Positions 43,140 through 64,000 of a DNA stretch of 64,000 nt are shown here, one piece after another. Numbering within the stretch: the first letter of the stretch is position 1; each line of letters begins with the position of its first letter. A model generated the notes under the pieces. It saw nothing but the letters and a program-made list of their open reading frames with translations. It was not told where the DNA came from and did no database searches. Both the position numbers and the translations under genes were made by a program. This DNA is from an uncultured delta proteobacterium (GTDB lineage Bacteria > Desulfobacterota > Syntrophobacteria > BM002): assembly GCA_963712115.1 (NCBI GenBank), contig CAVQGX010000003.1:65443-129442 (forward strand). The letters are read 5' to 3'.

Positions 43140-43170
43140 ACTCAGCTCTAGATTCTTTTTCCAAAGAAAG

Positions 43171-46309: not shown

Positions 46310-46568
46310 TTCGCTGTAACCAGGTCCGAGCTCAAATTTCTCACCCTAATCCGCATTTTACTTTAGCAAGCAAGCGAGAAACCCTTGGTATAAGAAACTA
46401 CGCTCTCTTGAGCCATTTCAGACATCATAAACAATGCATTTTTGGCTCTTCCTTTTCAGTATAGCCTTCAGGAAAATTTACTGATTGACATAACAATACA
46501 TGTGCTACAATACTCGCCATCTTTACTACTGAAACGACCACACAAACACTTTTGAGGGGGGGAAGAAG

Positions 46569-48041
46569 ATGTTAAAGGTCAAACCTGTCGGGATCGCAGC
46601 TATACTCGTTGCCACCATGTGGTTTTTGAGTGCCAGTGCAGGCAGCCAGGCAAAGACGGGAGAAGTATTCGAAATGGCGAATCCAGCAGATGAAGTAAAC
46701 CGTTTCGACAGCGAAATAAGCAACGCACAAAAAAACCAAGTCAATGTCTTGGCACCGATCTCTTTCGCCAAGGCTGAGAAGTACCTCAATGATGCCAAGG
46801 AAGCATTGGTGGGTGGAAATGAAATTTCAGAAATTCTTGAAGAGATCACTTCTGGGCGTCTACAACTCCAACGTGCTGAGGAGATGGCGCAAGTGGCGAG
46901 GACAACATTACCCAACGTTATAAAAGCTCGTGAACTGGCCCGTGCTGCAGGCGCTATCAGTTTAGGTGAGGATTATGTTAAGGCAGAGAAACAGTTTCTC
47001 AAACTCACCAAAGCGATAGAGAAAGACGACCTTAGGTATGCCCAAAATAACAGGGATAAGGTTGCCGCTGGCTTTGATCAACTTGAGCTGCGAGCCATTA
47101 AAGAGCAGAAACTAGGCGAAGCTCGCAAGTTAATCAATCAGGCAGAGGAGGAAGGCGCAAAGAAACTGGCACCGCAGACTTTGGAAATTGCTGAGCAGAG
47201 TTTGAAAGATGCAGATGTATTTATTTCAGAGCATCGCTATGAAAGAGAAAAGATACAGCAGAAATCCAGTGAGGCATTTTTCCAAGCCGAGCGTCTTCTT
47301 GAAGTGACAAGGCAAAGTAAAAAGATGAAAGAAATGGAGCCTGAGGAGATCAGCCTTTGGATGGAGGGAATCTTGAGCAAGACAGCGAGCACGCTTTCTG
47401 CTCCTGACATGCGGAACGAATCGTTTGATACGCAACGTGAAAATATTCTCGGCTCAGTCAGCGCACTCCAGGAGGATAAGCAATTCATTGCAAGCCAGGA
47501 CAAAGGCCACGTAGAGGAAATTGAGTCCTTGAAACAGCAAATTGCCCAGTTGGAGGGAAAGACTAAGGAGGAACAGGCAGCTTTAGAACGCTTGGAGAAA
47601 GAAAAGAGGTTCAATGAACTTTTCAATGAGGTCACAGGGTACTTCAGTACAGGCGAAGCGGAAGTATACAAACAAGGCAATAGATTGATAATTCGGTTAA
47701 GAGCAATCCAATTTCCGGTGGGAAAGGCCGTTATCATGCCTGATAATTACGGACTATTAAGCAAGGTTCAGCGAGCGATTAGAACCTTCGGTGAGCCAGA
47801 TGTTGTAATAGAGGGGCACACGGACACGACAGAATCAGAAGAGGTCAGTGAACACCTGTCGCAGCAAAGGGCTGAATCGGTTCGTAAGTACTTAGTGGCG
47901 AATCAAACCCTACCAGAGGAAAAGATTGTTGCTGTCGGTTACGGTTCTAAACGACCTTTGGCATCCAATGAGACTGAAGAGGGACGTGCTATCAATAGAA
48001 GAATCGATGTAGTTATTTCCCCTATGCCACAGGCCGGCTAA
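46569..48041 (+). CDS. OmpA/MotB-family protein with a coiled-coil N-terminus
   Basis: IEGHTD, LSQQRAESV, GYG..RP, GRAINRRID. Confidence 0.88.
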   Translation: MLKVKPVGIAAILVATMWFLSASAGSQAKTGEVFEMANPADEVNRFDSEISNAQKNQVNVLAPISFAKAEKYLNDAKEALVGGNEISEILEEITSGRLQLQRAEEMAQVARTTLPNVIKARELARAAGAISLGEDYVKAEKQFLKLTKAIEKDDLRYAQNNRDKVAAGFDQLELRAIKEQKLGEARKLINQAEEEGAKKLAPQTLEIAEQSLKDADVFISEHRYEREKIQQKSSEAFFQAERLLEVTRQSKKMKEMEPEEISLWMEGILSKTASTLSAPDMRNESFDTQRENILGSVSALQEDKQFIASQDKGHVEEIESLKQQIAQLEGKTKEEQAALERLEKEKRFNELFNEVTGYFSTGEAEVYKQGNRLIIRLRAIQFPVGKAVIMPDNYGLLSKVQRAIRTFGEPDVVIEGHTDTTESEEVSEHLSQQRAESVRKYLVANQTLPEEKIVAVGYGSKRPLASNETEEGRAINRRIDVVISPMPQAG

Positions 48042-48769
48042 TCGACCTGTCAGAACAAGGTAAAGGGACACTTTTATTGCGCTGAGAATAGTAAAGCAAG
48101 GCTCTTCAGCCCGGGAGAGCCTTGCTTTTCCCTTTTAATTACAGACTATCTCCTTGATTTTATATTTCTTAAGCAATTAATGGTTAGCATAATGAGATAA
48201 TGGATAAACCGTTACTGTCTGAATAGCGCTGCCATGCCTGGAGTTCAGATTACATACTCCACACTTTCTCTTTTGAGAACCGGCCACAATATCTTGGTTT
48301 AAACTAAAAAAATGCGGAGTCATTGGCTTCGCTTTTTTACTTCTCAACATCTTGTGATGAGGTTTCTAGGGGGGAAGTGTGAATTAAGGGATGTAATCGC
48401 CACTCTGCTCTCGTCGTTTTTACCACCCGACTAAATAGCCACAGGAGTGCGCTTTTGCTTGACAACAAGCGCTTCCCTCGCTTAATTTGAAGTCAGTTCT
48501 ATTTCCTTTTCCAACTCATCTTCGAGAGACCATTCGCTCAGTCATACACTCATCTGAACGGAATTATCACCTCACTCATTTTAGGCACTGTCTTCCACCT
48601 TTAGAGGCAAGTCATGAAGTGGATTTTCCAGAAAATGCCTACATGTGGCCCCCAAAGGCAGTAGATGTCCTTTGGGGGTCTTCTATGTGTTAACTCTCTG
48701 CAAGTAGATAGGTATTGCATATGAAGCCGCATGAAAATCACAATGACTTGTGATGAGGGAGGAAAAACC

Positions 48770-49329
48770 ATGATTAAAAAATTAAGCCTCGTTTTTGTCG
48801 TTGTATCTTTACTGACTGCTCCGGCTGTGTTAGCAGGCAATGGGGCCTTCCAAGGCAACTATGGAGAACTTTTTGCATATGCATCTAACTCAGATGCCAG
48901 CCTTTATATGGAAGTGTCCACGTATGCGAGTATCTATGGCGATCTTCGGTGCTCGATTTACTTCTATGACGAAGATGGCAACATGGGTTTTTGCTTTGGA
49001 GAGAACGATGCTTTTTCAGTTAATGTCTCTACCAGCCTTAAATACGGTACCTTTGAAGCCAACACCGAAGACCTAGCTTGCTTATATGAGGGACAAGATC
49101 CGCCACCCTCCTGGTGCGAGACATGATGATCTCGGTAAAATGCACTCCCAATGGCACGTATTCTGGGCAAAGTACTATAAATTCCCAAAACAGGTTTGGG
49201 GGCGGCAGTAAATCTGTTTATCATTCCATCTATAGGTCGGAAGAGGCCGATTGTGCAATCACCACCGACGGTATACTCTTTGGTGAGGGCAATGGTTTTA
49301 TTACCTATAACCAGGGGGTCGAGAAGTAA
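48770..49329 (+). pseudogene. Secreted Cys-containing protein, apparently split by a frameshift near 49120
   Basis: Signal peptide with GGAGG RBS; two overlapping ORFs of similar composition. Confidence 0.5.
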
Positions 49330-49463
49330 GTAAGAGTGGCTGTGGGAGGATCTCTAAAAACGGTTAATTAACTCCCACTTTATTTAGATGTTCAAGAACG
49401 AGCGGAGCTTCGGCTCCGCTTGTTTAAGCTCTCAATATCTTGTGCCAATATACATTCCAGTCG

Positions 49464-49492
49464 AGTGTGAATTAAGGGATGTAATTCACACT
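49464..49492. repeat. Perfectly palindromic core site
   Basis: AGTGTGAATTA-AGGGATG-TAATTCACACT. Confidence 0.9.
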
Positions 49493-49716
49493 CTCGCTAG
49501 GGTTGCTTCCAATAATTCATATTATTTGACACGGTCCACCTCGGTCTCATATTCTGAAAATAGTTAAGGCACGTTTCTTGCTCTAAATATCCTCAGAACC
49601 GCTCAGACCTACCAAATAAAGCAAAACAATTCCAATTAGTTGCATAAGTTTGTCCTTTGTTGGGAGTTAATTACCCAGCCCTACTTTTTAGGTAGGTTTT
49701 AGTTCAGGGGAGATGT

Positions 49717-49896
49717 ATGTCTTTCTCCGAGTGTAAAATTAGGCAAAGTAGTGTACCCGTGGAAGAAAAAAGAATAACTGAACTCTTGGATGAGGTTGAG
49801 TGCAATGCGGCATTCATAGATACCAAGGTGGTCAATGCGATAAAGGAGACAGAAAACCTTCTGCAACAAATATTAGCAGTTCTAGGGAAGCAGTAG
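49717..49896 (+). CDS. 59-aa hypothetical protein
   Basis: GGGAG RBS; GG-N10-GC at 49568-49581. Confidence 0.4.
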   Translation: MSFSECKIRQSSVPVEEKRITELLDEVECNAAFIDTKVVNAIKETENLLQQILAVLGKQ

Positions 49897-49947
49897 CGCA
49901 TTCCTGCTTTCAGGGACAGAACCTGAAAAAATAACTAGGGAAAAGCA

Positions 49948-50151
49948 ATGGCAAAGAAAGTTCCTTTCCCCCCAGACTCACCCAAACAGTGTCCATGCGC
50001 TCACAAGCATATCTCTTGGTCTATGGGCGACGACTATGTTTTTTATTGGGACTGCAACCGGAGATACCCACTAATTGCCTGTTTTAGGGCACCAGAGTCC
50101 AACCTCACTGAACCCAGAATCCAACTCAAAGAAAAAGAGTTGGAGAAATAA
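49948..50151 (+). CDS. Small Cys/His-containing hypothetical protein
   Basis: CPCAHKH...DC; 67 aa. Confidence 0.45.
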   Translation: MAKKVPFPPDSPKQCPCAHKHISWSMGDDYVFYWDCNRRYPLIACFRAPESNLTEPRIQLKEKELEK

Positions 50152-50166
50152 TCACCTCAGACTTTT

Positions 50167-50517
50167 ATGAGCATACAAAGACGACAGCATTCCAGAATTC
50201 TCGTCAGTTGGCCTGTGCTAGTGAATATCTTACAAGGTTCATTAGAGGGAAAGGTAAAAGATATCAGTGTTGGAGGCGTTGGCATCTTCTGCACAGAGGA
50301 GCCAGGTGCTGAGGAGAACATTTCTATCGTTCTAAATCCCTCCGAGCAGCGATCCATTGCTTTAATTGGCGAAAAAGTCTGGTCGGATGCGTATGAAACT
50401 GGTTGTGGAACACTATTTAGTATGGGTATCAGATTCATTTACATATCACCAGCAGATCATCAATACATTGCTGAATTAGTAAAAAATGAGCAGCATGACT
50501 TGCCCTTTAGAACCTAA
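50167..50517 (+). CDS. PilZ-domain protein
   Basis: RRQHSR, DISVGG, MGIRF. Confidence 0.85.
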   Translation: MSIQRRQHSRILVSWPVLVNILQGSLEGKVKDISVGGVGIFCTEEPGAEENISIVLNPSEQRSIALIGEKVWSDAYETGCGTLFSMGIRFIYISPADHQYIAELVKNEQHDLPFRT

Positions 50518-50818
50518 GCTCACCAAACGAATAAAAGTCGAGCCTGTCAAATGCCCCAGGTGTAAATTCACTATAATGGTTAATCTAAGAGAGAAAGTGT
50601 GTCCTGTTTGTGGGAGTGCGTTGCCAATCACTGAGAAGCGTTAAATGACTATCAATATCTTGTGCCAGATTGAAATCCAGAAAAGTGTGAATTAAGGGAT
50701 GTAATATAAAGTCCGCCCCGCACCCCCTCCATGCTGCCCACTTGTTAAAAAAGTCGGGCATAGACCTTGCAAACTCCACTGTAGCGAAAAAAATGGGGAG
50801 GCCACTAGGAGAAAGTGT

Positions 50819-51145
50819 ATGGCAAAGACAGACCGAAATCATTCTAGGGTTGCAGTCTCCTGGCCTGCTGCAATACTTAGTGAGCAGGGGGCAATTGCCG
50901 CTGAGGTAAAGAATGTTAGCTTGTCCGGAGTACTTATCTGGATTAATGAGGTGCCTGGCTCGAACGGAAATTATCATTTGGCTATCCTGATACCGGAGCA
51001 CAATTACACTATATTGACAAAAGTGGAGCCAATTAGACTTGAAATCCATGAGAATGAACCCAAACTCATTTATAGTTTGGGGGTTCGATTTGTAGATATT
51101 TCAGTAGAAGACCTCCGATTTCTTCTAGAGAGGGTCTTGCGTTAG
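50819..51145 (+). CDS. PilZ-domain protein
   Basis: DRNHSR, NVSLSG, LGVRF; GG-N10-GC at 50757-50770. Confidence 0.82.
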   Translation: MAKTDRNHSRVAVSWPAAILSEQGAIAAEVKNVSLSGVLIWINEVPGSNGNYHLAILIPEHNYTILTKVEPIRLEIHENEPKLIYSLGVRFVDISVEDLRFLLERVLR

Positions 51146-51198
51146 AGAAGGAATTGATTTTTCAAAAAACATGCGGAACTTCTGCTCTGCTTTTTTTT

Positions 51199-51310
51199 GG
51201 CATTGGGTTTGCGTCACTGAACCCGTGAGGTGAGTAAGTTGCTCGCTTCATGATCGCTACTCCTTCAGTCGCTACCCCCATTGGCATAGGGTCGATGGGG
51301 GTAATTTTTT
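51199..51310 (+). ncRNA. Candidate sigma54 promoter plus small RNA
   Basis: TTGGCATTGGGTTTGC; ends in ACCCCCATTGG...TCGATGGGGGT plus U-tract. Confidence 0.45.
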
Positions 51311-51852
51311 GAACCGCTTTAACTTGACCATCCACCACATTTGGTGCCAGATTTTCTGGGGGTAAAATGTGAATTAAGGGATGTAATCCACATTCCGCTC
51401 CCACCCTCTATGCATTCCACCTCAAATTCCCCCTAGTATTAATTGTGTTACAAGGGTAGCAAAGAAAAAATCATGCATTCTTCGTATTCACTTAATATAT
51501 TGCACTATTTACACTATGGTGATCCCAATGAGGGCTCATCGAGATCGAATAGGAGACGATTTATGGATTCGTTTACAGTTGAACTGACCCTTTTTTGCGC
51601 TGTTGCTATTGCATTAGTTGCCACACACAGAAAATGAGTCCACTCTGGACTCACTCTACCCCTTTCGGATATAATTACGGACATCGTTTAAGTCTGTACG
51701 CCTAGAAGCTAGATCCCAGATTACTCTGTGGGTTTAGAAACTCTCTCAAGATCGCATTCTCTTATCCCTTCGCAATAGGCAGCAGTATAGAGAATCAGCT
51801 GATTCTCAACTGGTGAGGATTTTTTGACCAGTTAATCAAACCAACTGAGTAG

Positions 51853-53178
51853 ATGATGACAAAAAGACTCTTTCTAACAACCATCCTTTTTCTTATTTTC
51901 TTTCAGACTCTTTCAGTCCCTCAGGCTTTTGCGAAGGCTAACGCCGGACCGGATCAAAGGGTGAATGAAGGAGACGAGGTATTCCTGGATGGTTCGAAGT
52001 CCAAGCCTAAGGGTGGCGATACGATCCAAAGTTTCTTATGGAAACAGGTTGAAGTTGAAGGAAATCCCGTGTCAATAACAGATGCAGACGAACCTACAGC
52101 GAGTTTTTTCGCCCCACAGGTTTTAAAAGACACGAAACTTACCTTTAAGCTGACAGTCAGATTTGCTTCTGGCAAAGAAGATACTGATGATACGAAAGTC
52201 TACGTATTAGATCGAGATGATGATAAAGATGATGATAGAGATGCTAATGATCCACCCAGGGCAGATGCAGGACCTAATCAGACGGTGCCTGAGAAAACTA
52301 TGGTCACCTTGGACGGGTCAAATTCATCTGATCCTGATGATGGTATTAAGTCCCATCTGTGGAAACAGATAAATGGACCATCAGTTAGTTTATCCAATCC
52401 TAGGGCGATTCAACCCACCTTTACGAGCCCCAGTGTTGCAGGCAACAAATCAACATCGCTTAAATTTGAGTTAACGGTTACTGATTTTGGTGGTTTGAAA
52501 GATACCGATACCACTGTTGTCAATGTGACCGGGGAAAATGATCCACCCTGGGCAGATGCAGGACCTAACCATAATGTGGACGAGGAAACTATAGTCACCC
52601 TGGACGGGTCAAACTCTTTTGATCCTGATGACGGCATTGCATCATATCAGTGGAAACAAATAGCAGGGCCGTCAGTTAGCCTATCTAATCCTCAGGCAGT
52701 ACAAACCACCTTCTTGGCACCGAATGTAGGAACGGATGGTGTTTCGTTTATCTTTGAGTTAACAGTGACCGATTTCAGCAGTTTGCAATCAACGGATACC
52801 GCAATTGTAAATGTGATCTGGCTGAACGATCCTCCCACAGCAAATGCTGGAGTTGATCAGGCAGTGCTTGAGAAAAGTACAGTCACTCTGGACGGTTCCA
52901 ATTCATCTGATCCAGATGATGGTATTGAGTCCTATCTCTGGAAACAGGTAGCAGGACAGTCAGTCTTCCTTTCCGATCCCACAGATGATCAACCGATTTT
53001 TGAGGCTCCAAGTTTTGATGATAGTGGTGACAAACAGCTCATCTTCGAGTTGATAGTTACAGATGAAGGCGGTTTGCAATCTAGTGATTCAACAACTGTT
53101 TCTGTCTCAAATTTTGAGAAAGACAACCCAGGCGCATCAGGAGGAGGTTGTTTTATTTCAGCTGCGGCAGATGGCTAG
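51853..53178 (+). CDS. Secreted protein with four PKD/K319L-like repeats and a C-terminal GGGCFI motif
   Basis: Four ANAGPDQ/ADAGPN...VTLDGSNS.DPDD...W.Q repeats; GGGCFISAAA. Confidence 0.85.
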   Translation: MMTKRLFLTTILFLIFFQTLSVPQAFAKANAGPDQRVNEGDEVFLDGSKSKPKGGDTIQSFLWKQVEVEGNPVSITDADEPTASFFAPQVLKDTKLTFKLTVRFASGKEDTDDTKVYVLDRDDDKDDDRDANDPPRADAGPNQTVPEKTMVTLDGSNSSDPDDGIKSHLWKQINGPSVSLSNPRAIQPTFTSPSVAGNKSTSLKFELTVTDFGGLKDTDTTVVNVTGENDPPWADAGPNHNVDEETIVTLDGSNSFDPDDGIASYQWKQIAGPSVSLSNPQAVQTTFLAPNVGTDGVSFIFELTVTDFSSLQSTDTAIVNVIWLNDPPTANAGVDQAVLEKSTVTLDGSNSSDPDDGIESYLWKQVAGQSVFLSDPTDDQPIFEAPSFDDSGDKQLIFELIVTDEGGLQSSDSTTVSVSNFEKDNPGASGGGCFISAAADG

Positions 53179-53380
53179 ATTACTTTCAGAATACTCTATC
53201 CATCTCCCAAAGATACTGCGGAGCTTCGACTCCGTTTTTTTATTCTCAACATCTTGTGCCTGAGCAAATCTCAGAGCAGTGTGAATTAAGGGATGATATT
53301 TTTAGTTTTTCAGATGCACTTTTCTTGTAGGAATTCGTGAGGGCATTCTAGGGTGGGATGAGAGTGCAAAGGTAAAGACA

Positions 53381-53872
53381 ATGGACTATTCAATGTCTCC
53401 AATTTCAGAGGATGATCGTAGAGCAATAATCGATATATTTAACTATTACGTAGAAAATTCTTTCGCAGCATATCCTGAGACGAAATTCCCTTATGAAGCA
53501 TTCGATATGTTTCTGCAAATGTCTCAGGGCTATCCCACAGCAAAAGTAAAAGATAAAAATGGCAGGGTAATTGGTTTTGGACTGCTGCGTTCACATAATC
53601 CCATGCCCACCTTTGCTGAGACGGCAGAAATAACCTACTTCATTCACCCGGATCACACGGGAAAAGGTATTGGAACAAAGCTTTTAAGCTTGCTCGAAGA
53701 AGAAGGAATAAAAAAAGGCATAACGAATATTTTAGCCAATATATCTTCCCTCAATCCCAGAAGCATAGATTTTCATAAAAAGAACGGCTTTATCGAGTGC
53801 GGGCGTTTCAAAAACGTGGGCAGAAAAAAGGGACAGGTATTCGATACAGTTTGGATGCAAAAAACACTCTAG
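53381..53872 (+). CDS. GNAT N-acetyltransferase (Pat/YncA-like)
   Basis: IFNYYV, GKGIG, N..SI.FHKKNGF, G.K.G..FD.VWMQ. Confidence 0.88.
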   Translation: MDYSMSPISEDDRRAIIDIFNYYVENSFAAYPETKFPYEAFDMFLQMSQGYPTAKVKDKNGRVIGFGLLRSHNPMPTFAETAEITYFIHPDHTGKGIGTKLLSLLEEEGIKKGITNILANISSLNPRSIDFHKKNGFIECGRFKNVGRKKGQVFDTVWMQKTL

Positions 53873-54052
53873 CTTATCGCTCTACACCTTCACGTAGTGT
53901 TTTGCTCTCTAGTATTGGAATTGGCAATTAAGGGATGTAATCTAATTTTTTTACTTCAATGGAAAAGCTTTATGACGATTGTGTGATAACTTTGTGATAT
54001 TGAAAACATGAAATCAGAGCAAAAAAAGTCTTGTGATTTCTCACAGGACATT

Positions 54053-54268
54053 TTAGCCTCCAGACTGTATTACTTTATTGCATCTTACACAAGTATACTT
54101 CGCGGTTGCCGCTTCTTCATCCGATAACCTATCGGCAAATCCTCTAATCGCATTTATTGTTTCCTCGTGCGACATACACAAACGGCAAATAGTTCCTTCT
54201 GTTTCTATAATACCGGAAAAACTTGAGAAATCTCCGCCTGGTTCTCCAATGTGACTCTCGCTACTCAT
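54053..54268 (-). CDS. Small hypothetical protein with two CxxC pairs
   Basis: CRLC and CVRC; AGGAGG RBS. Confidence 0.55.
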   Translation of the reverse strand: MSSESHIGEPGGDFSSFSGIIETEGTICRLCMSHEETINAIRGFADRLSDEEAATAKYTCVRCNKVIQSGG

Positions 54269-54808
54269 TGCGTTTCCTCCTTACTATCATCTGTGCATTC
54301 TATTATCGTGTCCTAGAAAGAACTCAATAGCAAAAAAAGGTTCATTATACTCAATATAAAATGACACACTTCCTTCATTATTCGCTGGCCCCATCAACAA
54401 ATATGGGTTTGAATATATCATCTTTGGGTTGACCCATCAAGCACTTCACTACGATGAATCTCTCTGGGTCATCATGAGTTATTTCCTTTCCTTCCTTTGG
54501 GTTGTAGACCACAACATTGTGCCTATCGCTCAATTCCCACAGTTGCTGGGAGATTCGACCCAGCATTGACTATTGGTAAATAATCCCAGAAACAAAACAG
54601 GGAAGAACTAAAGATTCTTCAAACACCCCAGCGGAGCTTCGGCTCCGTTTTTTTCAGTGCTAGTTAGCCGAGGCTCAGATTACATACTTTAATCTTAACT
54701 AGCCTTCCTTTTGACCAGCCAGTCTATCTTGTGGTAGGTTCCTGTAGTCCACTTAAAATGGCTTAGCTCCACTCAATCTGAACTGTGTCCTGTGGGGAGG
54801 GAATTTTC

Positions 54809-55591
54809 ATGTGCGAACTACTTGGTCTATGTTTTAACAAAGAGGTTACCGTTCAATTGGCCTTCTCTGGGCTAAAAGCTGGCGCAACGGATAACCCTGA
54901 TGGGTGGGGAGTGGCCTGGTATAATGAATACGGGACCCAAGTTATTAAAGAAGCAAGGCCAGTAGATCGGAGTCGTCTTGCCAGGAGCTTTCTGGAAGAC
55001 TTGGGTGCCCGATCAAGGATCTTTGTCTCACATATCCGCCTTGCTACAGCAGGTGAGGCAGGTTACGTCAACACGCACCCCTTTTATAGAAGGTTTGATG
55101 ATAAGACCTGGGTTTTTGCCCACAATGGCACGATAGATCCTGGTCAACTGAGTTTCTCTCCTAGAGAGTTCATCCCAATTGGCACAACTGATTCTGAACT
55201 CATCTTCTGTAGTCTTTTGTCATGGCTCAAGCATCATAAGTTGAGCTTGGCCGATAGAAATGACTTTATTCTCTTGCATGAGAAATTAGGAGAAATAAAC
55301 CGCTTAGGCGAGCTAAACCTGCTTTTTAGTAATGGCACCCACTTGTTCGCTTATCACGACAGGTCCGGTTACGTGGGGCTTCATTTCTTGCTCCGTCGCG
55401 CTCCCTACAAGGTTGTCAGACTTCGCGGACACTATCTGACTGCCGACTTAGCAGAGATCATAGATCCGGATGAACGAGGATATCTCGTGGCCAGCGAGCC
55501 CCTGAGCGATGAGAATTGGATAAGTTTTAAGCCAGGCCAGTTGTTGGTTTTTTTTGAAGGTAATCCCATTTTCATGAGTGAAAATGAATGA
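54809..55591 (+). CDS. Class II glutamine amidotransferase (YafJ-like)
   Basis: MCELLG, NPDGWG, HIR.AT, NTHPF, FAHNG, GTTDSE. Confidence 0.9.
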   Translation: MCELLGLCFNKEVTVQLAFSGLKAGATDNPDGWGVAWYNEYGTQVIKEARPVDRSRLARSFLEDLGARSRIFVSHIRLATAGEAGYVNTHPFYRRFDDKTWVFAHNGTIDPGQLSFSPREFIPIGTTDSELIFCSLLSWLKHHKLSLADRNDFILLHEKLGEINRLGELNLLFSNGTHLFAYHDRSGYVGLHFLLRRAPYKVVRLRGHYLTADLAEIIDPDERGYLVASEPLSDENWISFKPGQLLVFFEGNPIFMSENE

Positions 55592-56248
55592 ATCCGTGAG
55601 GATAACCTTCACCGTCGGATCCGCCACACCGCTTTAGCCAAAATGGAGATATCATACTTTAATCCACACTTTTGCCATTCTGAGTCAGCCACAATATCTG
55701 GGGTGAAACGAACCTAAAGCGTTAACCTTGCCCCAATGGGGCTATTCATTTTTCAAAGATCACTGCGGAGTTTCGGCTCCGCTTTTTTTGTTGTGGTATC
55801 CACTTGAGTCATGCTAAGTTACTTCTTGGACAGGGAGCCTTCTCTGTCCGGTGCCCCGACCCCCAGCACCTAAGTGCCCCGGTTGCTGGGGGTTTTTTGT
55901 TGTGATGCAGCCTCGCTTGGCACCTTTCCATATCTTGTGCCAGAGTGAAAACCAGCAGAGTGTGAATTAAGGGATGTAATATAAAGTTTGCTCTCACCTG
56001 TCCGTACTAACCACCTTGGTTTCTCCCTGGTATTAGAGGGTACTAAAACCAAAATCATGCATCCTGCCGATTTACAGAGTTAGTCAGATTGTTCTAAGAT
56101 GCTTACGTTTTTACGTATATACGGCACGAAAATAGACAGCATTACCTGTAATTAGCTTTTCCATAGCTATCGGCACGTCACTTGCCTATTCGTTCTCTCA
56201 GCATAGTCAATTCCAGAAGGAGAATTTCTGCATTAAAAGAGAAAGACT

Positions 56249-56536
56249 GTGGCTCACGAAATCGACAACCGGCAACACCCTAGAATGCCAATCACATTAC
56301 TTGCCAGGATGGTCACTCCAACAAGCGTTACGGAAGGCGTAACGGAGAATATTAGCCTGCATGGCGCCTTTATCCGTTGCCAAAAACCGCTTGAGCCCGG
56401 AGAGAGGATCATTGTCATTGCGAAACTTCCTTCCAACCCATCGTTTAACTCCCATGCTGAGATTGTCTGGTCACGTGTGCCTCGCCCTAATGACGAGGTA
56501 ATTAGCCGTGGCATGGGAGTTAAGTTCATAGACTGA
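56249..56536 (+). CDS. PilZ-domain protein
   Basis: NRQHPR, NISLHG, GMGVKF; sigma54 motif CGGCACGTCACTTGC at 56171. Confidence 0.87.
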   Translation: MAHEIDNRQHPRMPITLLARMVTPTSVTEGVTENISLHGAFIRCQKPLEPGERIIVIAKLPSNPSFNSHAEIVWSRVPRPNDEVISRGMGVKFID

Positions 56537-56969
56537 CCCCGGATTAGCTTGATCTTGGAGGCCCAGTCTACAGAAGCAGGGTTGTAGCTTCCACCTCCAT
56601 TTTTATGCATTGCCATACCCTAGGGCGTTACCCCTGTTGGCCTTGGATCGCTCGACTCATCAGTGGGGTTTTTTTCGATAACCCCGCTTTGACCACTCAC
56701 AGCAATTTGTGCCAGTCTGTAACCTAGGCGATTGTGAATTAAGGGATGTAATACAACTTTTGCTTTGGTCGAAGCGAGGTTGAATTACTCATCAATAACA
56801 CAATGTGGTAGTTTTTTCCCAACCTTATAACCTTGGTTTCCCATCTTGTTCCTTCTAATTTCTGATGTATATCGACTAATCCTTTGAAATATTTCCAAAT
56901 AAATTTAGTTACTTAATTTGGCATGATTATTGTTTGCTGGAGCTTTAGCATGAATGTCGATAGATTCTG

Positions 56970-57209
56970 TTGCACACAACAAGGCAGAGTATTTTGGTGA
57001 GAAACCGAAAGGCTCCTATGGTAGAAGAGCGAAGTCCCTGTCTTAAATGCGAACGTCTGGAAAAAAACAAGTTGGAGTGCGCAGCTTCGTGTGAAGAACT
57101 AGAGAAATTCAAAGAAGGACTGCATCATTGCCTATTAACCCAGGAAGACTCAACTGACTATAGAATCCCGGGTTTGCAGCGGACACGGTGTTACACCATT
57201 GATGATTGA
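56970..57209 (+). CDS. Small Cys-rich hypothetical protein
   Basis: SPCLKC...C...C; protein identical in the duplicate. Confidence 0.5.
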   Translation: MHTTRQSILVRNRKAPMVEERSPCLKCERLEKNKLECAASCEELEKFKEGLHHCLLTQEDSTDYRIPGLQRTRCYTIDD

Positions 57210-57245
57210 ACGAAACTGCTGGCATAACAATCAAAATACACCGAA

Positions 57246-57458
57246 ATGGCAGTGACTATGAGAGTATGGTTGCAGCATAACTTAAATCCGTTGCATTTGT
57301 GGTGCCGACTCGGCGGTCGTTTTAAATGGTGGTTCAGATTATACGAGGATTACTTATGGCAGCCTCTCCTGAGAGGTTGGCTCAACGGCAAAGTCAAGTG
57401 GGAGGAACCTGACCTTTCAGGTGAGAAGACAGAGTTCTTGCCGCAGTCTCCCATGTGA
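57246..57458 (+). CDS. Small hypothetical protein
   Basis: LQHNLNPLHLWCRL; duplicated. Confidence 0.55.
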   Translation: MAVTMRVWLQHNLNPLHLWCRLGGRFKWWFRLYEDYLWQPLLRGWLNGKVKWEEPDLSGEKTEFLPQSPM

Positions 57459-57479
57459 ATCTGTTAGGATAAGAGACAA

Positions 57480-58142
57480 GTGAACTCAGTATCCTGGACG
57501 ATATATGTAATCGGACCGTGTAGGGTGAATAATGAGCTTCTGGCGTCCTTTTTGGAGGCCGAGATAGGTGCGAATTGTGTAGTCAAAGAGACTATCGACG
57601 ATGTGGTTGAATTGGATGATCAAGAGAGTGTTAAACCCAAGCTAGTACTCCTCGACTGCTTTGCCAAAGACCACGAAAGACTCTTCCTTGAGGTTGAAGC
57701 TTGCTATTGTAATTTGGGCACCTCGGACTTAATGGCGGTCTTCAACTTGATCCGAGGGCTGAGAATTGAGGAAGAGCTCGTGATAAGAGGAGTAAGGGGC
57801 ATCTTTTATGCCAATGATCACCCGGGCAACCTTGATAAAGGAATTCGTGCACTCTTGAAAGGGGAGATTTGGATCTCCCGTGAGATTCTGTCTAAATTCA
57901 TTCCCGAAATTGAGAACGCAAAAGTATTATCTGGGAATGAAACATCTGTGCTTTCGGGAAGAGAGATCGAGATAGTGAATTTGGTTGCACGGGGAGCAAT
58001 GAACACGGAAATAGGTGAAAAACTTTATATTAGCCGTCATACAGTCAAGACCCATCTTTACAACATATACAAAAAGATCAAGGTCACCAATCGCCTGGAG
58101 GCAGCCCTTTGGGCCAAGGAAAACCTCCACACTCAGACCTAA
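57480..58142 (+). CDS. LuxR-family regulator with a degenerate receiver (CsgD/VpsT-like)
   Basis: GVRGIFY, GEIWISR, LSGRE...N.EI..KLYIS.HTVKTHLYNI. Confidence 0.85.
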   Translation: MNSVSWTIYVIGPCRVNNELLASFLEAEIGANCVVKETIDDVVELDDQESVKPKLVLLDCFAKDHERLFLEVEACYCNLGTSDLMAVFNLIRGLRIEEELVIRGVRGIFYANDHPGNLDKGIRALLKGEIWISREILSKFIPEIENAKVLSGNETSVLSGREIEIVNLVARGAMNTEIGEKLYISRHTVKTHLYNIYKKIKVTNRLEAALWAKENLHTQT

Positions 58143-58491
58143 GCTCCGTTGACCTTCTGGACTGGCTGAAGATTACATACTTTAATCCACACTTTTGCCA
58201 TTCTGAAACATCCACCACATCTAGTGTTGAATAAGTGTGGGGTAATTGGACACGCCTGCCCACGGTGAGGCTATTCACTTCCTAAAGAACACTTGCGGAG
58301 CCTTGGCTCCGCTTTTTCTTTTGCCAACTCTCCATTCGAATTAGAGTCTCTTAGCAATTTTCAACCTAGACCAATCAATTCTAGCCCGGATGTTTCACCC
58401 CTCCGTGCTGCCTCAGCTGAGTAAATTTCTTGATGCACCTGTAACCTTTTTCGCCCTCCATTCGATTAATAAGTATGAAAGGAGAATAAAA

Positions 58492-58785
58492 ATGAAAAAC
58501 ATCAGTAAGATTATAATAGCCGCTCTTTTGGCAATGCTTCTGGTCGTTTGGGCGTCTCCATCGGAGGCAGGGAATGGCCAGTATCGCTCTGGTCACAGAA
58601 ACTACTACAAAAATGGTCCCAGGATCCAGAGGTTTGACGGATACCAGCATAATTATACGAGCCAGCGTTATTACCATTACGGATATGACTATAGACAAAA
58701 CCATTTCCGTAATAGTCACTACTCTAATTTTGGGCTTTACCTCTCTCCCAACAGAACAAGAATCCAGATTAGATTCGGCTTTTGA
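58492..58785 (+). CDS. Secreted Tyr/His/Arg-rich small protein
   Basis: AGGAG RBS, signal peptide. Confidence 0.6.
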   Translation: MKNISKIIIAALLAMLLVVWASPSEAGNGQYRSGHRNYYKNGPRIQRFDGYQHNYTSQRYYHYGYDYRQNHFRNSHYSNFGLYLSPNRTRIQIRFGF

Positions 58786-59108
58786 TGCTGCCCAAGCGGT
58801 GAGGATAATGCCTGCTCCAGATTTTTCATTTTGCAGGCAGGAGGTTAAACATGACTCTCTGAGGTTATGATTCTTGCAAGAACACTATGGAGCTTCGGCT
58901 CCGCTTTTTTGTTGGCACCAAAAAATCGGGTGACTAGATCCCTACCTGGGTTGAGACTTCAAAAAAACACCAATATTTGGCTCGAAACTTGCTCCTTAAC
59001 TAGTCTAAATTCTGGCCTTTTCTAGCACACGGTTTGATTTATAGGATTACTTAGGGATTTGATCCGACAAAAATGTAAAAACTAGAAATCAGGCAAATAG
59101 AACCGAAA

Positions 59109-59477
59109 ATGAACCAAGAACAAAAGGACACATATCCAACAGGTGGACTCGGATGGCCTGTTACCATTGTAAGTCCTGAGGGCGACCTAGAGGCTGCGAT
59201 TGAAAGTGTGAGTTCAAAGGGTGCTCTCATTTCTTGCAATGACATACCACCTTTAACTAAAACATTACAGTTGATAATCAGGCCCCCAAATTACAAGACA
59301 GTTCTTACTAGCGGAAAAATAATTTGGTCTACCATCCTTAAACCTGACGAAGGTGATTCACGTCTTGGTATAGCCATTCAATTCATAACCATGACCGCAA
59401 GTGACCGCCGGTTCCTCTCCTCTGCCGTTGCAAAGCTTGGCTCTAAGAACACCAAGCTGGCAACCGACAAAGAATAG
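59109..59477 (+). CDS. Degenerate PilZ-domain protein
   Basis: WPVTI, SVSSKGA, IIW, LGIAIQF; RxxxR lost. Confidence 0.7.
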   Translation: MNQEQKDTYPTGGLGWPVTIVSPEGDLEAAIESVSSKGALISCNDIPPLTKTLQLIIRPPNYKTVLTSGKIIWSTILKPDEGDSRLGIAIQFITMTASDRRFLSSAVAKLGSKNTKLATDKE

Positions 59478-59533
59478 AAAAACTTTGTCAATATGGTTAC
59501 AGGGTATTCAGAATCTGGCTCCGCCTTTTTATT

Positions 59534-59650
59534 GGCATTTGGTTTGCATCAAAAATTCAAACTGAGTGAACATAGGGTTCACTCGTTCGATCGTAGGGTC
59601 CCCCATCGGTTTATATCGGTGTGCGCCGTGCCGATGGGGGTTTTCTTTTC
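59534..59650 (+). ncRNA. Candidate sigma54 promoter plus small RNA, copy B
   Basis: Near-identical to 44691-44800. Confidence 0.55.
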
Positions 59651-59930
59651 CAAGATGGAACTTTTTTGAAGCTACCTTGACTATTATCAACAATAGAACA
59701 TAACCTCTTTGTCAACTCTCTCCTTTCTTGTCTCCCCACTGGCATAGGATCGGTGGGGTTTTCTTTTCCACCCCTCCCTGATAACTATCCGAGGACTAAA
59801 ATATCTAATTCTCGCACGATATTTGCTTTCTTTAGTAGATGTTGTTTTCAGAGCTTGACCCCAGAGGAGCATGGCAGGGGATCTATAGCTTTATCAGCAC
59901 AAGTGATCTGAGGACTAAATAGGGGATGCT

Positions 59931-60800
59931 ATGAAAGTCAGAAAGCGACAGGAGAATTTAGGATTCAGGCACAAATCTAAGGTTGAACTCTTCAAAGAAG
60001 GGATGGATTTCTCGATTAAAGGGATGACTGAGAAAATCGGCCAAAATAGTGCCTTTATCAAGACCAAAGACTGGCAATCTTTCCAAGTTGGAGACTCAAC
60101 TATTCTAAGGTTTATTCTCCCTACTGACTACGCTGGGTTTCAAGGTGAAGCCATTGTTCAGGACATAGATCAGGAGAATGAAGGGGTGATGGTAGAGTTT
60201 GTACGAAGCTTCAAACAGCTTGAGCCGGTCAGCACACCCGATGTTTCGGGGAAAGCCAGATACAAAAACCTGGCATTTTACCTTTCCAGTCTTGTAGATG
60301 CACCTTTAGGTGAATTGACCTCTGTACATCCAAACGGCTTTTTGGTTGAAAAATCTAAGAGGTTCTTTGACGATAATGTGATGTTTCAGTTTAGTACCGA
60401 TGTGGTGGAAGATCAGGATGTTCTGGAACAATTAAGCCAAGGAGTGAATCGTAGAGAGGTCTTGGGGGCTAGGGTGGTAGAAATCAAAAAAAGGAAAAAT
60501 ATCACCAACCCCGATATGATCACCATAGGTCGTTCTCCCGAAAATGATATTGTTTTGTATAACAGGTTGGTATCTAAGAGTCATGCTTACCTGGATGTAG
60601 GTTCTTCAGATGAAGCTGTTTATCTGGTTGATACTGGGTCAACGAATGGTACATTTGTCAACAATGTCCCATTAGCGCCTCGTGGAAACTATGAGCTGGC
60701 TGATGGCGATGAGATTTCATTTGGGCCTGAAACAAAGGTCGTTTACTTTTCACCGAAGGCTTTCCAGGGCTTGCTTTCAGGATTGAAATCTTTCGATTGA
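59931..60800 (+). CDS. PilZ-like plus FHA domain protein
   Basis: FHA motifs IGR, SKSHA, STNGTF; colinear with the C-terminal part of 13563-15014. Confidence 0.8.
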   Translation: MKVRKRQENLGFRHKSKVELFKEGMDFSIKGMTEKIGQNSAFIKTKDWQSFQVGDSTILRFILPTDYAGFQGEAIVQDIDQENEGVMVEFVRSFKQLEPVSTPDVSGKARYKNLAFYLSSLVDAPLGELTSVHPNGFLVEKSKRFFDDNVMFQFSTDVVEDQDVLEQLSQGVNRREVLGARVVEIKKRKNITNPDMITIGRSPENDIVLYNRLVSKSHAYLDVGSSDEAVYLVDTGSTNGTFVNNVPLAPRGNYELADGDEISFGPETKVVYFSPKAFQGLLSGLKSFD

Positions 60801-60980
60801 CTAAAGTTGATTCAAGGCTTAGAGCCAGAAGAAATGGATATGTAGCTATTTAATTCCTAGTAATTTGGCATGAATTTTGCTTTTAAATTATCAAAAAATT
60901 TAACATAGTTTGAAACAGCCTTAGCTCTAAACACAGTTTTTCGCAGATCTCAAAGTCGAGGTCTCCCTAAAGGGGCAACA

Positions 60981-61307
60981 ATGGACGATGAAAAGCGGAT
61001 ATATCCAAGAACTGAAATTAAATGGCCTGTTTCTGCCATAACGGCTAAGGGCATGATTCTTGGCGAAACCAAAAATATCAGTCTCAATGGTGCATTTATC
61101 TATTGTGAAAAGACGCTATGCCCTGACGAAGTAATGTTGTTGACCGTCAAAGGGCCTTCTGGCCACATGCAAGTCGTTGCTCAAGTGCTCTGGTCAAATT
61201 GCTGCGCTTGCGATGAGAAGAAAAGCCCAAGCGGAATTGGCGTAAAGTTTATGTGGTCGCTACCCAAAACAGAGTCAGAGTGCATGATGTGGAGTAAAGC
61301 AAGCTGA
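60981..61307 (+). CDS. PilZ-domain protein
   Basis: KRIYPR, NISLNG, GIGVKF; sigma54 motif at 60867-60880. Confidence 0.87.
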   Translation: MDDEKRIYPRTEIKWPVSAITAKGMILGETKNISLNGAFIYCEKTLCPDEVMLLTVKGPSGHMQVVAQVLWSNCCACDEKKSPSGIGVKFMWSLPKTESECMMWSKAS

Positions 61308-61368
61308 GGCCACATCTTAATGCCAAATTCGTTACCCAAGCAAACCAAGTATTTTTATCCAAAACCCG

Positions 61369-61689
61369 GTGCCTATGCAGAGTCGGCAGAACAGAAGAAA
61401 ATACCCTCGTGTGCAAGCGTCCTTCCTTGTAAATTGCCAACAGGCTGATCTCACCAGAGTGGGGGACAAAGCCCTTAATCGGAGTGCAGGGGGAATAGCT
61501 ATCAAGACCAATTGCCCGGTCTGCGTAGGAGAGAAACTAACAGTGAAGTTCGTGGAGCCGAAAACTCTCCATTCTCATAGTATGAAAGGACTGGTGGTCT
61601 GGCGCCAATTTCATGGAGATGGCTCTGAGCAAGCAGAGACTTTGTTTACCGCAGGAATCAAGTTTCTGAATCTTAATGACTCCTTCTAA
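61369..61689 (+). CDS. PilZ-domain protein
   Basis: RRKYPR, NRSAGG, VVW, AGIKF. Confidence 0.82.
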   Translation: MPMQSRQNRRKYPRVQASFLVNCQQADLTRVGDKALNRSAGGIAIKTNCPVCVGEKLTVKFVEPKTLHSHSMKGLVVWRQFHGDGSEQAETLFTAGIKFLNLNDSF

Positions 61690-61703
61690 ACTGACCTACC
61701 CGG

Positions 61704-61814
61704 ACTGTGAATGACATACTTTAATGCACACTTTTGCCCTTTCTGGTCCGAACCCACATATAGTAGTATCGTTCTTAGAACTAAAACTGTGAATTAAGGG
61801 ATGTAATACAAAGT
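61704..61814. repeat. Complete bipartite site at the duplication junction
   Basis: catactttaatgcacacttttgccctttctg...ttagaactaaaactgtgaattaagggatgtaat. Confidence 0.85.
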
Positions 61815-62075
61815 TCGCTCTCACCTGTCCGTACTAACCACCTCGGTTTCTCCCTAGTATTAGAGGGTACTAAAACCAAAATCATGCATCCTGCCGATTT
61901 ACAGAGTCAGTCAGATTGTTCTAAGATGCTTACGTTTTTACGTATATACGGCACGAAAATAGACAGCATTACCTGTAATTAGCTTTTCCATAGCTATCGG
62001 CACGTCACTTGCCTATTCGTTCTCTCAGCATAGTCAATTCCAGAAGGAGAATTTCTGCATTAAAAGAGAAAGACT

Positions 62076-62363
62076 GTGGCTCACGAAATCGACAACCGGC
62101 AACACCCTAGAATGCCAATCACATTACTTGCCAGGATGGTCACTACAACAAGCGTTATGGAAGGCGTAACGGAGAATATTAGCCTGCATGGCGCCTTTAT
62201 CCGTTGCCAAAAACCGCTTGAGCCCGGAGAGAGGATCATTGTCATTGCGAAACTTCCTTCCAACCCATCGTTTAACTCCCATGCTGAGATTGTCTGGTCA
62301 CGTGTGCCTCGCCCTAATGACGAGGTAATTAGCCGTGGCATGGGAGTTAAGTTCATAGACTGA
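62076..62363 (+). CDS. PilZ-domain protein (duplicate)
   Basis: Two amino acid differences from 56249-56536. Confidence 0.87.
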   Translation: MAHEIDNRQHPRMPITLLARMVTTTSVMEGVTENISLHGAFIRCQKPLEPGERIIVIAKLPSNPSFNSHAEIVWSRVPRPNDEVISRGMGVKFID

Positions 62364-62796
62364 CCCCGGATTAGCTTGATCTTGGAGGCCCAGTCTACAG
62401 AAGCAGGGTTGTAGCTTCCACCTCCATTTTTATGCATTGCCATACCGTAGGGCGTTACCCCTGTTGGCCTTGGATCGCTCGACTCATCAGTGGGGTTTTT
62501 TTCGATAACCCCGCTTTGACCACTCACAGCAATTTGTGCCAGTCTGTAACCTAGGCGATTGTGAATTAAGGGATGTAATACAACTTTTGCTTTGATCGAA
62601 GCGAGGTTGAATTACTCATCAATAACACAATGTGGTAGTTTTTTCCCAACCTTATAACCTTGGTTTCCCATCTTGTTCTTTCTAATTTCTGATGTATATC
62701 GACTAATCCTTTGAAATATTTCCAAATAAATTTAGTTACTTAATTTGGCATGATTATTGTTTGCTGGAGCTTTAGCATGAATGCCGATAGATTCTG

Positions 62797-63036
62797 TTGC
62801 ACACAACAAGGCAGAGTATTTTGGTGAGAAACCGAAAGGCTCCTATGGTAGAAGAGCGAAGTCCCTGTCTTAAATGCGAACGTCTGGAAAAGAACAAGTT
62901 GGAGTGCGCAGCTTCGTGTGAAGAACTAGAGAAATTCAAAGAAGGACTGCATCATTGCCTATTAACCCAGGAAGACTCAACTGACTATAGAATCCCGGGT
63001 TTGCAGCGGACACGGTGTTACACCATTGATGATTGA
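62797..63036 (+). CDS. Small Cys-rich hypothetical protein (duplicate)
   Basis: Same protein as 56970-57209. Confidence 0.5.
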   Translation: MHTTRQSILVRNRKAPMVEERSPCLKCERLEKNKLECAASCEELEKFKEGLHHCLLTQEDSTDYRIPGLQRTRCYTIDD

Positions 63037-63072
63037 ACGAAACTGCTGGCATAACAATCAAAATACACCGAA

Positions 63073-63285
63073 ATGGCAGTGACTATGAGAGTATGGTTGC
63101 AGCATAACTTAAATCCGTTGCATTTGTGGTGTCGACTCGGCGGTCGTTTTAAATGGTGTCTCAGATTATACGAGGATTACTTATGGCAGCCTCTCCTGAG
63201 AGGTTGGCTCAACGGCAAAGTCAAGTGGGAGGAACCTGACCTTCCAGGTGAGGAGACAGAGTTCTTGCCGCAGTCTCCCATGTGA
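63073..63285 (+). CDS. Small hypothetical protein (duplicate)
   Basis: Four amino acid differences from 57246-57458. Confidence 0.55.
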   Translation: MAVTMRVWLQHNLNPLHLWCRLGGRFKWCLRLYEDYLWQPLLRGWLNGKVKWEEPDLPGEETEFLPQSPM

Positions 63286-63306
63286 ATCTGTTAGGATAAG
63301 AGACAA

Positions 63307-63969
63307 GTGAACTCAGTATCCTGGACGATATATGTAATCGGACCGTGTAGGGTGAATAATGAGCTTCTGGCGTCCTTTTTGGAGGCCGAGATAGGTGCGA
63401 ATTGTGTAGTCAAGGAGACTATCGACGATGTGGTTGAATTGGATGATCAAGAGAGTGTTAAACCCAAGCTAGTACTCCTCGACTGCTTTGCCAAAGACCA
63501 CGAAAGACTCTTCCTTGAGGTTGAAGCTTGCTATTGTAATTTAGGCACCTCGGACTTAATGGCGGTCTTCAACTTGATCCGAGGGCTGAGAATTGAGGAA
63601 GAGCTCGTGATAAGAGGAGTAAGGGGCATCTTTTATGCCAATGATCACCCGGGCAACCTTGATAAAGGAATTCGTGCACTCTTGAAAGGGGAGATTTGGA
63701 TCTCCCGTGAGATTCTGTCTAAATTCATTCCCGAAATTGAGAACGCAAAAGTATTATCTGGGAATGAAACATCTGTGCTTTCGGGAAGAGAGATCGAGAT
63801 AGTGAATTTGGTTGCACGGGGAGCAATGAACACGGAAATAGGTGAAAAACTTTATATTAGCCGTCACACAGTCAAGACCCATCTTTACAACATATACAAA
63901 AAGATCAAGGTCACCAATCGCCTGGAGGCAGCCCTTTGGGCCAAGGAAAACCTCCACACTCAGACCTAA
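63307..63969 (+). CDS. CsgD/VpsT-like LuxR regulator (duplicate)
   Basis: Protein identical to 57480-58142; only synonymous SNPs. Confidence 0.85.
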   Translation: MNSVSWTIYVIGPCRVNNELLASFLEAEIGANCVVKETIDDVVELDDQESVKPKLVLLDCFAKDHERLFLEVEACYCNLGTSDLMAVFNLIRGLRIEEELVIRGVRGIFYANDHPGNLDKGIRALLKGEIWISREILSKFIPEIENAKVLSGNETSVLSGREIEIVNLVARGAMNTEIGEKLYISRHTVKTHLYNIYKKIKVTNRLEAALWAKENLHTQT

Positions 63970-64000
63970 GCTCCGTTGACCTTCTGGACTGGCTGAAGAT

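Follow-up and report, generated by a model that had tools for sequence, protein, structure and literature searches.

In integrons, which are the subject of reviews (PMC8618304, PMC8876359), small genes are arrayed in one direction with conserved imperfect palindromes between them, the attC sites. These have AAC...GTT boxes, and recombination takes place at a sharp and fixed crossover. Miniature inverted-repeat transposable elements (MITEs), as well as repetitive extragenic palindromic (REP) and REPIN sequences, are intergenic palindromes of high copy number, with inverted ends and discrete lengths, which break assemblies and serve as targets of insertion sequences (IS) of the IS110 family. A further organization, that of the dif modules of Acinetobacter plasmids, involves pdif sites and XerC/XerD (PMC13141974, PMC6449649, PMC7399989, PMC12907356); there, sites whose spacers are alike recombine to give inversions, deletions and the replacement of single modules (PMC13141974). 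These dif modules offer the closest described logic to that of the locus presented here, which lies in a stretch of 64,000 nucleotides (the window; positions 65443-129442 of contig CAVQGX010000003.1, or C3, other contigs being numbered likewise) from an uncultured delta proteobacterium of the Syntrophobacteria (lineage BM002; genome G000). Within the window, a block of two gene modules, block X, recurs between short core sites that are dispersed over the genome. Block X probably represents two gene modules that site-specific recombination at these cores has moved or copied, most likely through an enzyme of the family of P0001, a tyrosine recombinase encoded on the same contig. No description of such a system was found in the literature searched.

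A 2.2-kb duplication in the window had been reported by a first-pass annotation of the sequence, and alignment bears it out: positions 55961-58173 recur at 61788-64000, with 2213 nt aligned, 20 mismatches (99.1% identity) and no gaps. Copy A of the block (55977..58175, plus strand) contains the two modules that had been proposed, as judged by open reading frames (ORFs) and domain matches: a PilZ gene (56249-56536), followed by two small ORFs (56970-57209 and 57246-57458) and a VpsT-like LuxR gene (57480-58142; GerE and VpsT-like receiver domains). Copy B (61804..64000, plus strand) carries the same genes (PilZ, 62076-62363; ORFs, 62797-63036 and 63073-63285; LuxR, 63307-63969). In agreement with the annotation, the differences between the copies are scattered substitutions, some of them non-synonymous, with 11 of the 20 located in the four ORFs: two in the PilZ gene, both non-synonymous, five in a 70-aa ORF, which result in four amino acid changes, one synonymous in a 79-aa ORF, and three in the LuxR gene, all synonymous. 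Cores are of two types, G and A, which differ in their spacers, and a G-type site is found to the left of copy A (55914..55993, plus strand; core 55962-55976, GTGAATTAAGGGATG; crossover zone ATG, 55974-55976), at the edge of the identity of copy A with both copy B and a third copy. Identity between A and B does start at the T of TGTGAATTAAGGG, and the preceding base and everything further upstream are unlike, as had been noted; the proposal that the edge falls within the left arm of the core does not hold in that form, since the core is conserved at all sites and the A/B pair alone therefore places the edge only somewhere in its ~20 nt. At the other end, copy A stops at an inverted A-type site (58164..58234, minus strand; core 58176-58190, whose minus strand reads GTGGATTAAAGTATG). 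Copy B, which had been thought to reach the next inverted core at the window edge, stops 2 nt short of it because the assembly itself stops there, C3 ending at 129442, and not because of a site. A spacer segment Y (58191..61714, plus strand) separates the copies; it is unique, only its first ~750 nt recurring elsewhere, and it is followed by an 88-nt composite junction (61699..61820), made of an inverted A-type core (61715-61729) and a forward G-type core (61789-61803), at whose G tip copy B begins.

The third copy of X, present in reversed orientation on C39 (98.4% identity over 1720 nt and 98.9% over 550 nt), allows both edges to be placed. On the left side, it has only the generic site consensus in common with copy A, and specific identity extends from the forward core on. 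On the right side, the two copies are identical through ...GATTACATACTTTAAT and then diverge inside the inverted core 58176-58190, so that the right boundary also falls at a site element, as was to be checked from the outset. The C39 copy sits in an island beside an integrase gene and a tRNA-Pro gene, and its LuxR gene is split by a 1.1-kb IS630-type element (DDE_3) with ends unrelated to the cores. Pieces neighbouring the block are cut at the same points: the sequence to the right of the inverted core (58167-58916) recurs on C13 (96-97%) and C46 (87-91%), beginning at that core, the C13 copy starting at the core within which the C39 copy leaves A (58176-58190), whilst the sequence that precedes the forward core (55811-55963) is also present on C46 and C18 (95-96%), where it ends at that core. 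The three copies of X thus have their edges at the same two cores and different neighbours, and at least two exchanges separate A from C39, because their junctions differ on both sides. Together with the one-sided core pairs detected genome-wide (see below), these edges support the initial suggestion of a footprint of recombination at the core in a mobile array.

Whether A and B lie on one chromosome is a separate matter. The source is a metagenome-assembled genome (MAG) of 70 contigs, with 94.4% completeness and 5.99% contamination, and for this reason the two copies could be strain variants. A contig chimeric for two strains with X in different array positions, which the assembler would have crossed through the shared segment, is a possibility of some weight, if a minor one. 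Consistent with it, copy B runs into the contig end, and at least eight other contig ends break inside cores; variants are shared among the three X copies in a mosaic pattern; and no second copy of Y, which a simple tandem duplication of X+Y would predict, is assembled in the genome. That duplication, by unequal exchange of one G site with another, was discarded on the same ground. On the other hand, the contig spans all three junctions (U-X, X-Y and Y-X'), and the C39 copy stands in a different, internally assembled tRNA-Pro island with its own IS, which places X in more than one context within the bin. In any case, a chimera would alter the copy number and leave the reading of the edges intact: the A/B junctions are recombination junctions at the core, either between strain variants or between true duplicates. 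In public reads, the best runs hold at most 26% of the sampled words of the stretch, solely as short Logan contigs. The pieces found in four runs from four studies are 170-610 nt long, and the 'joints' listed for them are cross-mapping and not junctions, since their sides measure 20-37 nt and lie on repeats. Depth in these runs, which sums many organisms, is far higher in site-holding bins than in gene bins.

The core motif (up to 3 mismatches) has 21 matches in the window versus 2.1 expected, a number reached by none of 100 shuffles, and a profile search built from the elements yielded 175 sites in G000, distributed over 40 of its 70 contigs. The sites are double-stranded, imperfect palindromes of the 11-7-11 kind, in which two arms of 11 nt, inverted relative to each other, enclose a spacer of 7 nt. 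In each site, one of the halves is conserved over 50-70 nt and terminates in the arm AGTGTGAATTA, reading ...GTGAATTA-AGGGATG in the G type and ...GTGGATTA-AAGTATG in the A type when the spacer is included. The spacers of the 169 sites scored are bimodal (AGGGATG, 88; AAGTATG, 47; GAGTATG, 8; other, 26). The other half is variable and consists of TAAT plus a weaker inverted arm (TAATTCACACT-like), whose agreement with the conserved arm, once inverted, amounts to 7.0 (G type) or 7.3 (A type) of 11 positions, versus 3 in a control shifted by 5 nt. Most sites are solitary (123 of 175), and 26 composites join an inverted A-type half to a forward G-type half, with tip-to-tip lengths of either 83-88 nt (15 cases) or 139-146 nt (11 cases), the long class containing a GC hairpin followed by a T run (a terminator). 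The polarity of sites and genes is strong. Past a G tip, the nearest ORF of at least 80 aa runs in the same orientation in 60 of 86 cases (22 opposite, 4 without such an ORF), and past an A tip it is convergent in 45 of 54 (6 co-oriented, 3 without). Gene modules are thus headed by a G site and closed by an inverted A site, and short junction modules lie between them.

As a separate observation, three copies of an IS110-family element (DEDD_Tnp_IS110 and Transposase_20; 90-98% alike) were found at C42:~17060-18352, C36:~18370-19680 and C48:~12590-13890, each of them inserted within a G-type core, between GTG and TGAATTAAGGGATG. Their position inside the cores indicates that the core is the target of this element and not its end, which resembles the targeting of attC or pdif sites by other IS families.

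Such an anatomy calls for a comparison with MITEs. The junction palindromes could be non-autonomous elements with terminal inverted repeats that hit TA or ATTAAT between genes, the genes being passive and the shared edges reflecting insertion hot spots, an explanation that is unlikely. The composites would suit it in their two discrete sizes, their inverted ends of ~21-30 nt (ATTACAT...ATGTAAT), their intergenic position and the TA that flanks most of them on both sides, and a ~1.15-kb unit that shares these ends contains an enzyme gene, in the manner of an IS; as in MITEs, REP and REPIN, copy number is high, assemblies break at the repeats and an IS110-family element targets them. The flanking TA may be a target-site duplication, although it is also part of the symmetric ATTA/TAAT arms, and no empty site was found. 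However, the flanks keep an inverted copy of the arm where random target DNA would be expected. The enzyme in the ~1.15-kb unit is a tyrosine recombinase and not a DDE transposase, no transposase-coding relative with these ends was detected, and the IS630-type and IS110-type elements that are present have unrelated ends. Similarly, none of the four Y1_Tnp (IS200/RAYT-type) genes, the kind of gene that accompanies REP/REPIN, is flanked by sites, three being on contigs devoid of them and the fourth (C48:16511-16954) lying 3.9 and 2.2 kb from the nearest ones. Most sites are solitary and, unlike in MITE, REP or REPIN families, gene segments between the repeats recur; moreover, three X copies with different junction elements at the same two positions would need six independent insertions.

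To locate the exchange, flanks of 400 nt were compared for the 158 cores that the genome contains with up to 2 mismatches, taking more than 85% identity as flank sharing. Among the 23 flank-sharing pairs, 19 are one-sided and four both-sided, and in 13 of the one-sided pairs the estimated switch falls within -14..+18 of the core start (positions are counted with the G of GTGAATTAAGGGATG as 0). The most informative pairs are C13:14645/C60:8691 and C28:12327/window 51369, in which the same right flank is attached once to an A-type half and once to a G-type half, with identity beginning at position 12, and a left-sharing pair, window 40593/C4:8701, with its first difference at position 16. Crossover can therefore be bounded to positions 12-15, that is, ATG(T) at the right end of the spacer. 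The two pairs that switch between A and G look like inversions of the 88-nt junction module. Two inverted arms, a bimodal 7-nt spacer and a crossover at these positions make up the simple layout of a tyrosine-recombinase core site. A-type and G-type halves have just 7 identical bases in common at the joint. Minimal homology for RecA-type recombination far exceeds 7 nt, and such a mechanism is implausible here. A stricter run that included other MAGs gave 16 right-only and 6 left-only pairs, and in six of these another genome takes part. In the first comparison, 12 pairs with a common right flank are informative, the three X pairs among them not being mutually independent; ten join that flank to the same spacer class and two to different classes.

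These data also bear on the idea that the conserved halves are regulatory sequences of a large regulon, a terminator plus a promoter or 5′ leader, and that the edges arose by homologous or microhomology-mediated recombination within the longest identical stretch. G sites do lie 5′ of co-oriented genes, at a median distance of 282 nt; junctions hold terminator hairpins; the 21-23 identical bases of the core are the longest stretch shared; and the cargo is rich in c-di-GMP and signalling genes, with PilZ in 8 of the 25 window ORFs tested (40000-64000) and GGDEF, cyclase and FHA genes elsewhere. Nevertheless, this is quite an improbable account, given that two pairs switch exactly where the halves share just 7 bases, that the variable side keeps an inverted arm for which a promoter has no need, and that A-type sites lie inverted at the 3′ side of genes (45 of 54). 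Promoter readings fared poorly as well: sigma-70-like matches number 11 versus 13.7 expected in shuffles, and both a sigma-54 and a sigma-70 interpretation of the conserved half were rejected on account of unfit spacing and, for the latter, of this lack of excess. No Rfam family matches at E<=1, apart from a chance match to a fungal sRNA (E=0.4). The GGA in the core brought CsrA binding to mind, a reading set aside as no CsrA gene was found in this 94%-complete genome.

An integron would be a known source of one-directional arrays of small genes between imperfect palindromes, with a sharp crossover and a cargo that varies between relatives, and all these traits are found here. In addition, the genome has an IntI gene (C27:2356-3300; TIGR02249, 487 bits for a cut-off of 265), the composites are located 3′ of genes, as attC sites are, and four A-type ends abut canonical attC halves (C27:118259, C31:156394, C42:183891 and C54:12937). 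It is nonetheless very improbable that the composites are unusual attC sites and the array a cassette array of this integrase. The integrase has its own canonical attC sites beside intI, with CCTAAC...GTTAGG ends unlike the cores, no IntI gene adjoins the array, and the AAC/GTT boxes are missing from it. Single-strand folding appears weak in the two composites folded as DNA (-8.1 and -10.5 kcal/mol; z of -0.6 and -2.0 versus shuffles), exchange takes place at inverted as well as forward cores, and most sites are single cores or solitary halves instead of folded doublets. The four abutments indicate that a true integron and the core system are interleaved in places.

The candidate enzyme, P0001, is a Xer-like tyrosine recombinase of 278 aa (C3:1094-1927; locus L123). 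Its best model is that of archaeal XerA (119 bits, below the cut-off of 220), with matches to Pfam Phage_integrase and Xer models, and its best solved relatives are the Xer proteins 4a8e, 1a0p and 5hxy. Tyrosine recombinases rely on the catalytic set R-K-H-R-H/W-Y, which the residues invariant in an 18-sequence alignment of the family reproduce (R138, K165, H224, R227, H251 and Y260). At E<=1e-30, homologues occur in 8 of the 41 genomes searched, namely G000, 6 of 17 of the same genus and the single sister-genus genome, and in none of the 22 outside these two genera. The core follows the same limits: in a comparison with a 22-nt core (up to 2 mismatches), it was found in 16 of the 17 other congeneric genomes, at 2 to 61 copies each (73 in G000), and in the one genome of the sister genus, and in none of the 22 genomes of other genera and families searched; the reversed pattern, used as a control, gave no match in any genome searched. 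Public MAGs with labels such as Desulfobacteraceae, Syntrophobacterales and Syntrophobacteria contain exact matches in at least 109 stretches. Homologues of P0001 are thus confined to the core-bearing clade, where 7 of the 18 other genomes have them. Gene and site are also physically linked at 5 of 10 homologue loci, where an A-type site lies 24-156 nt downstream of the stop codon, in the orientation of the gene. In two of the relatives (G005:C209 and G006:C123), CATCCCTTAATTCACA, a reversed G end, lies ~190 nt upstream of the gene, and a hairpin plus CAGTGTGGATTAAAG... or CAGTGGGGATTAAAGTATG, an A end, lies downstream; the whole forms a ~1.15-kb junction module that encloses the recombinase gene.

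Beyond this clade, the wider family comprises 4249 protein clusters at E<=1e-20, named by the sources only 'integrase' or 'XerD', and at least 466 loci across Desulfobacterota MAGs. The core is present in one of the best 80 of these loci, so other lineages would use other sites, if any. A crude search for flanking inverted repeats of at least 15 nt gave positives in 15 of 71 loci with no common motif, and it misses the known ends in L138. As for the remaining enzymes of G000, XerC- and XerD-like genes are present on C30 and C62 and nothing ties them to the sites, whilst the tyrosine recombinases on C39, C46, C11, C50, C13 and C12 were set aside as the shuffling enzyme, for they adjoin tRNA genes and look like ordinary island integrases. 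The sole dif-like candidate, at C43 (-) 61108, found with a consensus sequence, differs from the core, and the reading of the cores as host dif sites was dropped.

Two further peculiarities of the recombinase family are worth recording. A conserved A-run at about codon 19 has one A too many in 6 of the 8 loci checked (L123 of G000, L126, L128, L129, L130, L133 and L134, together with L132, which lacks the run); the full protein at those six would need a +1/-2 slip, the A7 of G000 is in frame, and in most of the 80 wider-family loci the match does not start before residue 19. The run could serve for programmed slippage or phase variation of the recombinase. In addition, many metagenome contigs with close relatives of the recombinase are just ~1.03-1.2 kb long, approximately the size of the recombinase unit, which would fit a repeat-bounded or circular unit.

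Returning to site-specific shuffling of modules as the probable origin of the X copies, the most likely pathway would start with the binding of a P0001-family recombinase to the two arms of a site, followed by strand exchange at ATG(T), at the right edge of the spacer. With the exchange at this point, any segment between two sites would become swappable; the conserved half would stay constant, and the variable half, TAAT and the weak inverted arm, would travel with the neighbouring DNA. Direct orientation of like sites would lead to excision and insertion, and inverted orientation to inversion; the replacement of a module would take a pair of exchanges, the first involving a G site and the second an A site, or vice versa. 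Gene modules are kept apart by the junction modules of 83-88 or 139-146 nt, the longer ones with their terminator hairpin. Copies A, B and C39 would be products of such deletions, insertions, inversions or replacements.

Several points weigh against this reading. The discrete sizes of the junctions and their terminal inverted repeats also fit a MITE, and copy B may belong to another strain. The two sites that flank X face opposite directions, and for this reason one recombination is not enough to excise or move the block, at least two being needed. Six of the 19 one-sided pairs have their estimated switch outside the core proper, from -75 to +51, either in the variable stretch of the conserved half or in an adjacent core. 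With regard to the enzyme, 10 of the 17 further core-bearing genomes yielded no homologue of P0001, the ends of the P0001 unit of G000 itself are degenerate, as are those of the copies in G012 and G018, and its gene is 104 kb away from this array. Neither enzyme activity nor a recombination product has been observed, and the assignment of P0001 is correlative.

A more elaborate version can be proposed, although only tentatively and with some doubt. In this 'socket and plug' arrangement, junctions would supply a terminator and the two site classes, and modules with a G head and an A tail would be swapped in fixed orientation by two recombinations, under the action of a Xer-like recombinase gated by slippage at its A-run, thereby diversifying the c-di-GMP and cell-surface repertoire of the genus. 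The proposed swap by two exchanges may be likened to engineered recombinase-mediated cassette exchange.

There are several parallels with the Acinetobacter dif modules. In both cases, short asymmetric recombinase core sites bound gene modules (PMC13141974), the sites that flank a module are inversely oriented, and two kinds of modules, with the conserved arm either inside or outside, alternate; here, a forward G site and an inverted A site enclose X, and the 26 junction units have their conserved halves inside. Dedicated insertion sequences also target both systems, with the IS1202 family at dif modules (PMC10132070) and the IS110-type element at the present cores. In contrast, sites are 11-7-11 here and 11-6-11 there; one half is conserved over 50-70 nt, and the longer junctions include a terminator; the spacers form two classes tied to gene polarity; ~175 sites are spread over large contigs and tRNA-linked islands in place of small Rep_3 plasmids; and a small recombinase gene resides within a junction module, instead of the host XerCD being used.

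The remainder of the array occupies 40578..55711, with its genes on the plus strand and 16 further site matches (G-type forward, A-type inverted) between them; these genes encode a response regulator, four PilZ proteins, and AMIN, OmpA, PKD, GNAT and GATase proteins. Segment Y contributes an ORF (58390-58785), three PilZ genes (59109-59477, 60981-61307 and 61369-61689) and an FHA gene (59931-60800). Further G-type sites separate the two modules within copy A (56685..56764, plus strand; core 56734-56748) and within copy B (62512-62591), and a GC hairpin terminator (58295-58312) follows the A-type site of copy A. The segment 55811-55961 (~150 nt), between a junction terminator and the G site of copy A, is rich in hairpins and ends in a CCCCCAGC...GCTGGGGGTTTTTT terminator, and its copies on C46 and C18 (95-96%) are followed by a core of which only AGTGTG-TAAT is left; the segment may correspond to a leader or to a gene for a small RNA. 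At the start of the array, a 1.3-kb unit with a response-regulator gene is present twice, at 40593-41891 and at C4:7417-8715 (~99-100% identity), and has outward-facing ends, an inverted A core and then a G core, in the fashion of a junction-type module with cargo. A TauE exporter gene precedes the array, in a region (38400-40460) that is mosaic: 38400-38897 recurs on C28 (98%), and C6 has a 92% paralogue of the TauE gene region. For this reason, the beginning of the array is not traceable by synteny, and it may lie further left than the first recognisable core.

Other arrays of the genome (C36, C42 and C54) hold cNMP-FHA-PilZ, GGDEF-PAS, cyclase-TPR, FHA, OmpA, AMIN and PKD genes, together with those of a caspase-like peptidase and of HtrA-like proteases, and the cargo as a whole is rich in second-messenger (c-di-GMP) and surface functions. 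Block X itself has only distant partial matches in relatives, in 3 of the 17 genomes of the genus, and this near-absence indicates that cargo varies strongly between species.

If the proposed exchange is true, it would be a third kind of bacterial system for the exchange of gene modules, beside integrons and the dif modules of Acinetobacter. It would be located on the chromosome and extend to the whole genus, each genome having well over a hundred sites, with a small recombinase of its own and a built-in rule of orientation. Genetic tools could draw on it for two new short recombination sites and for the 278-aa recombinase, and it would account for the poor assembly of these MAGs. The hosts of the socket-and-plug arrangement would be relatives of sediment sulfate reducers, and the shuffling of modules would account for the differences in signalling genes (PilZ, GGDEF, FHA and response regulators) between close relatives.

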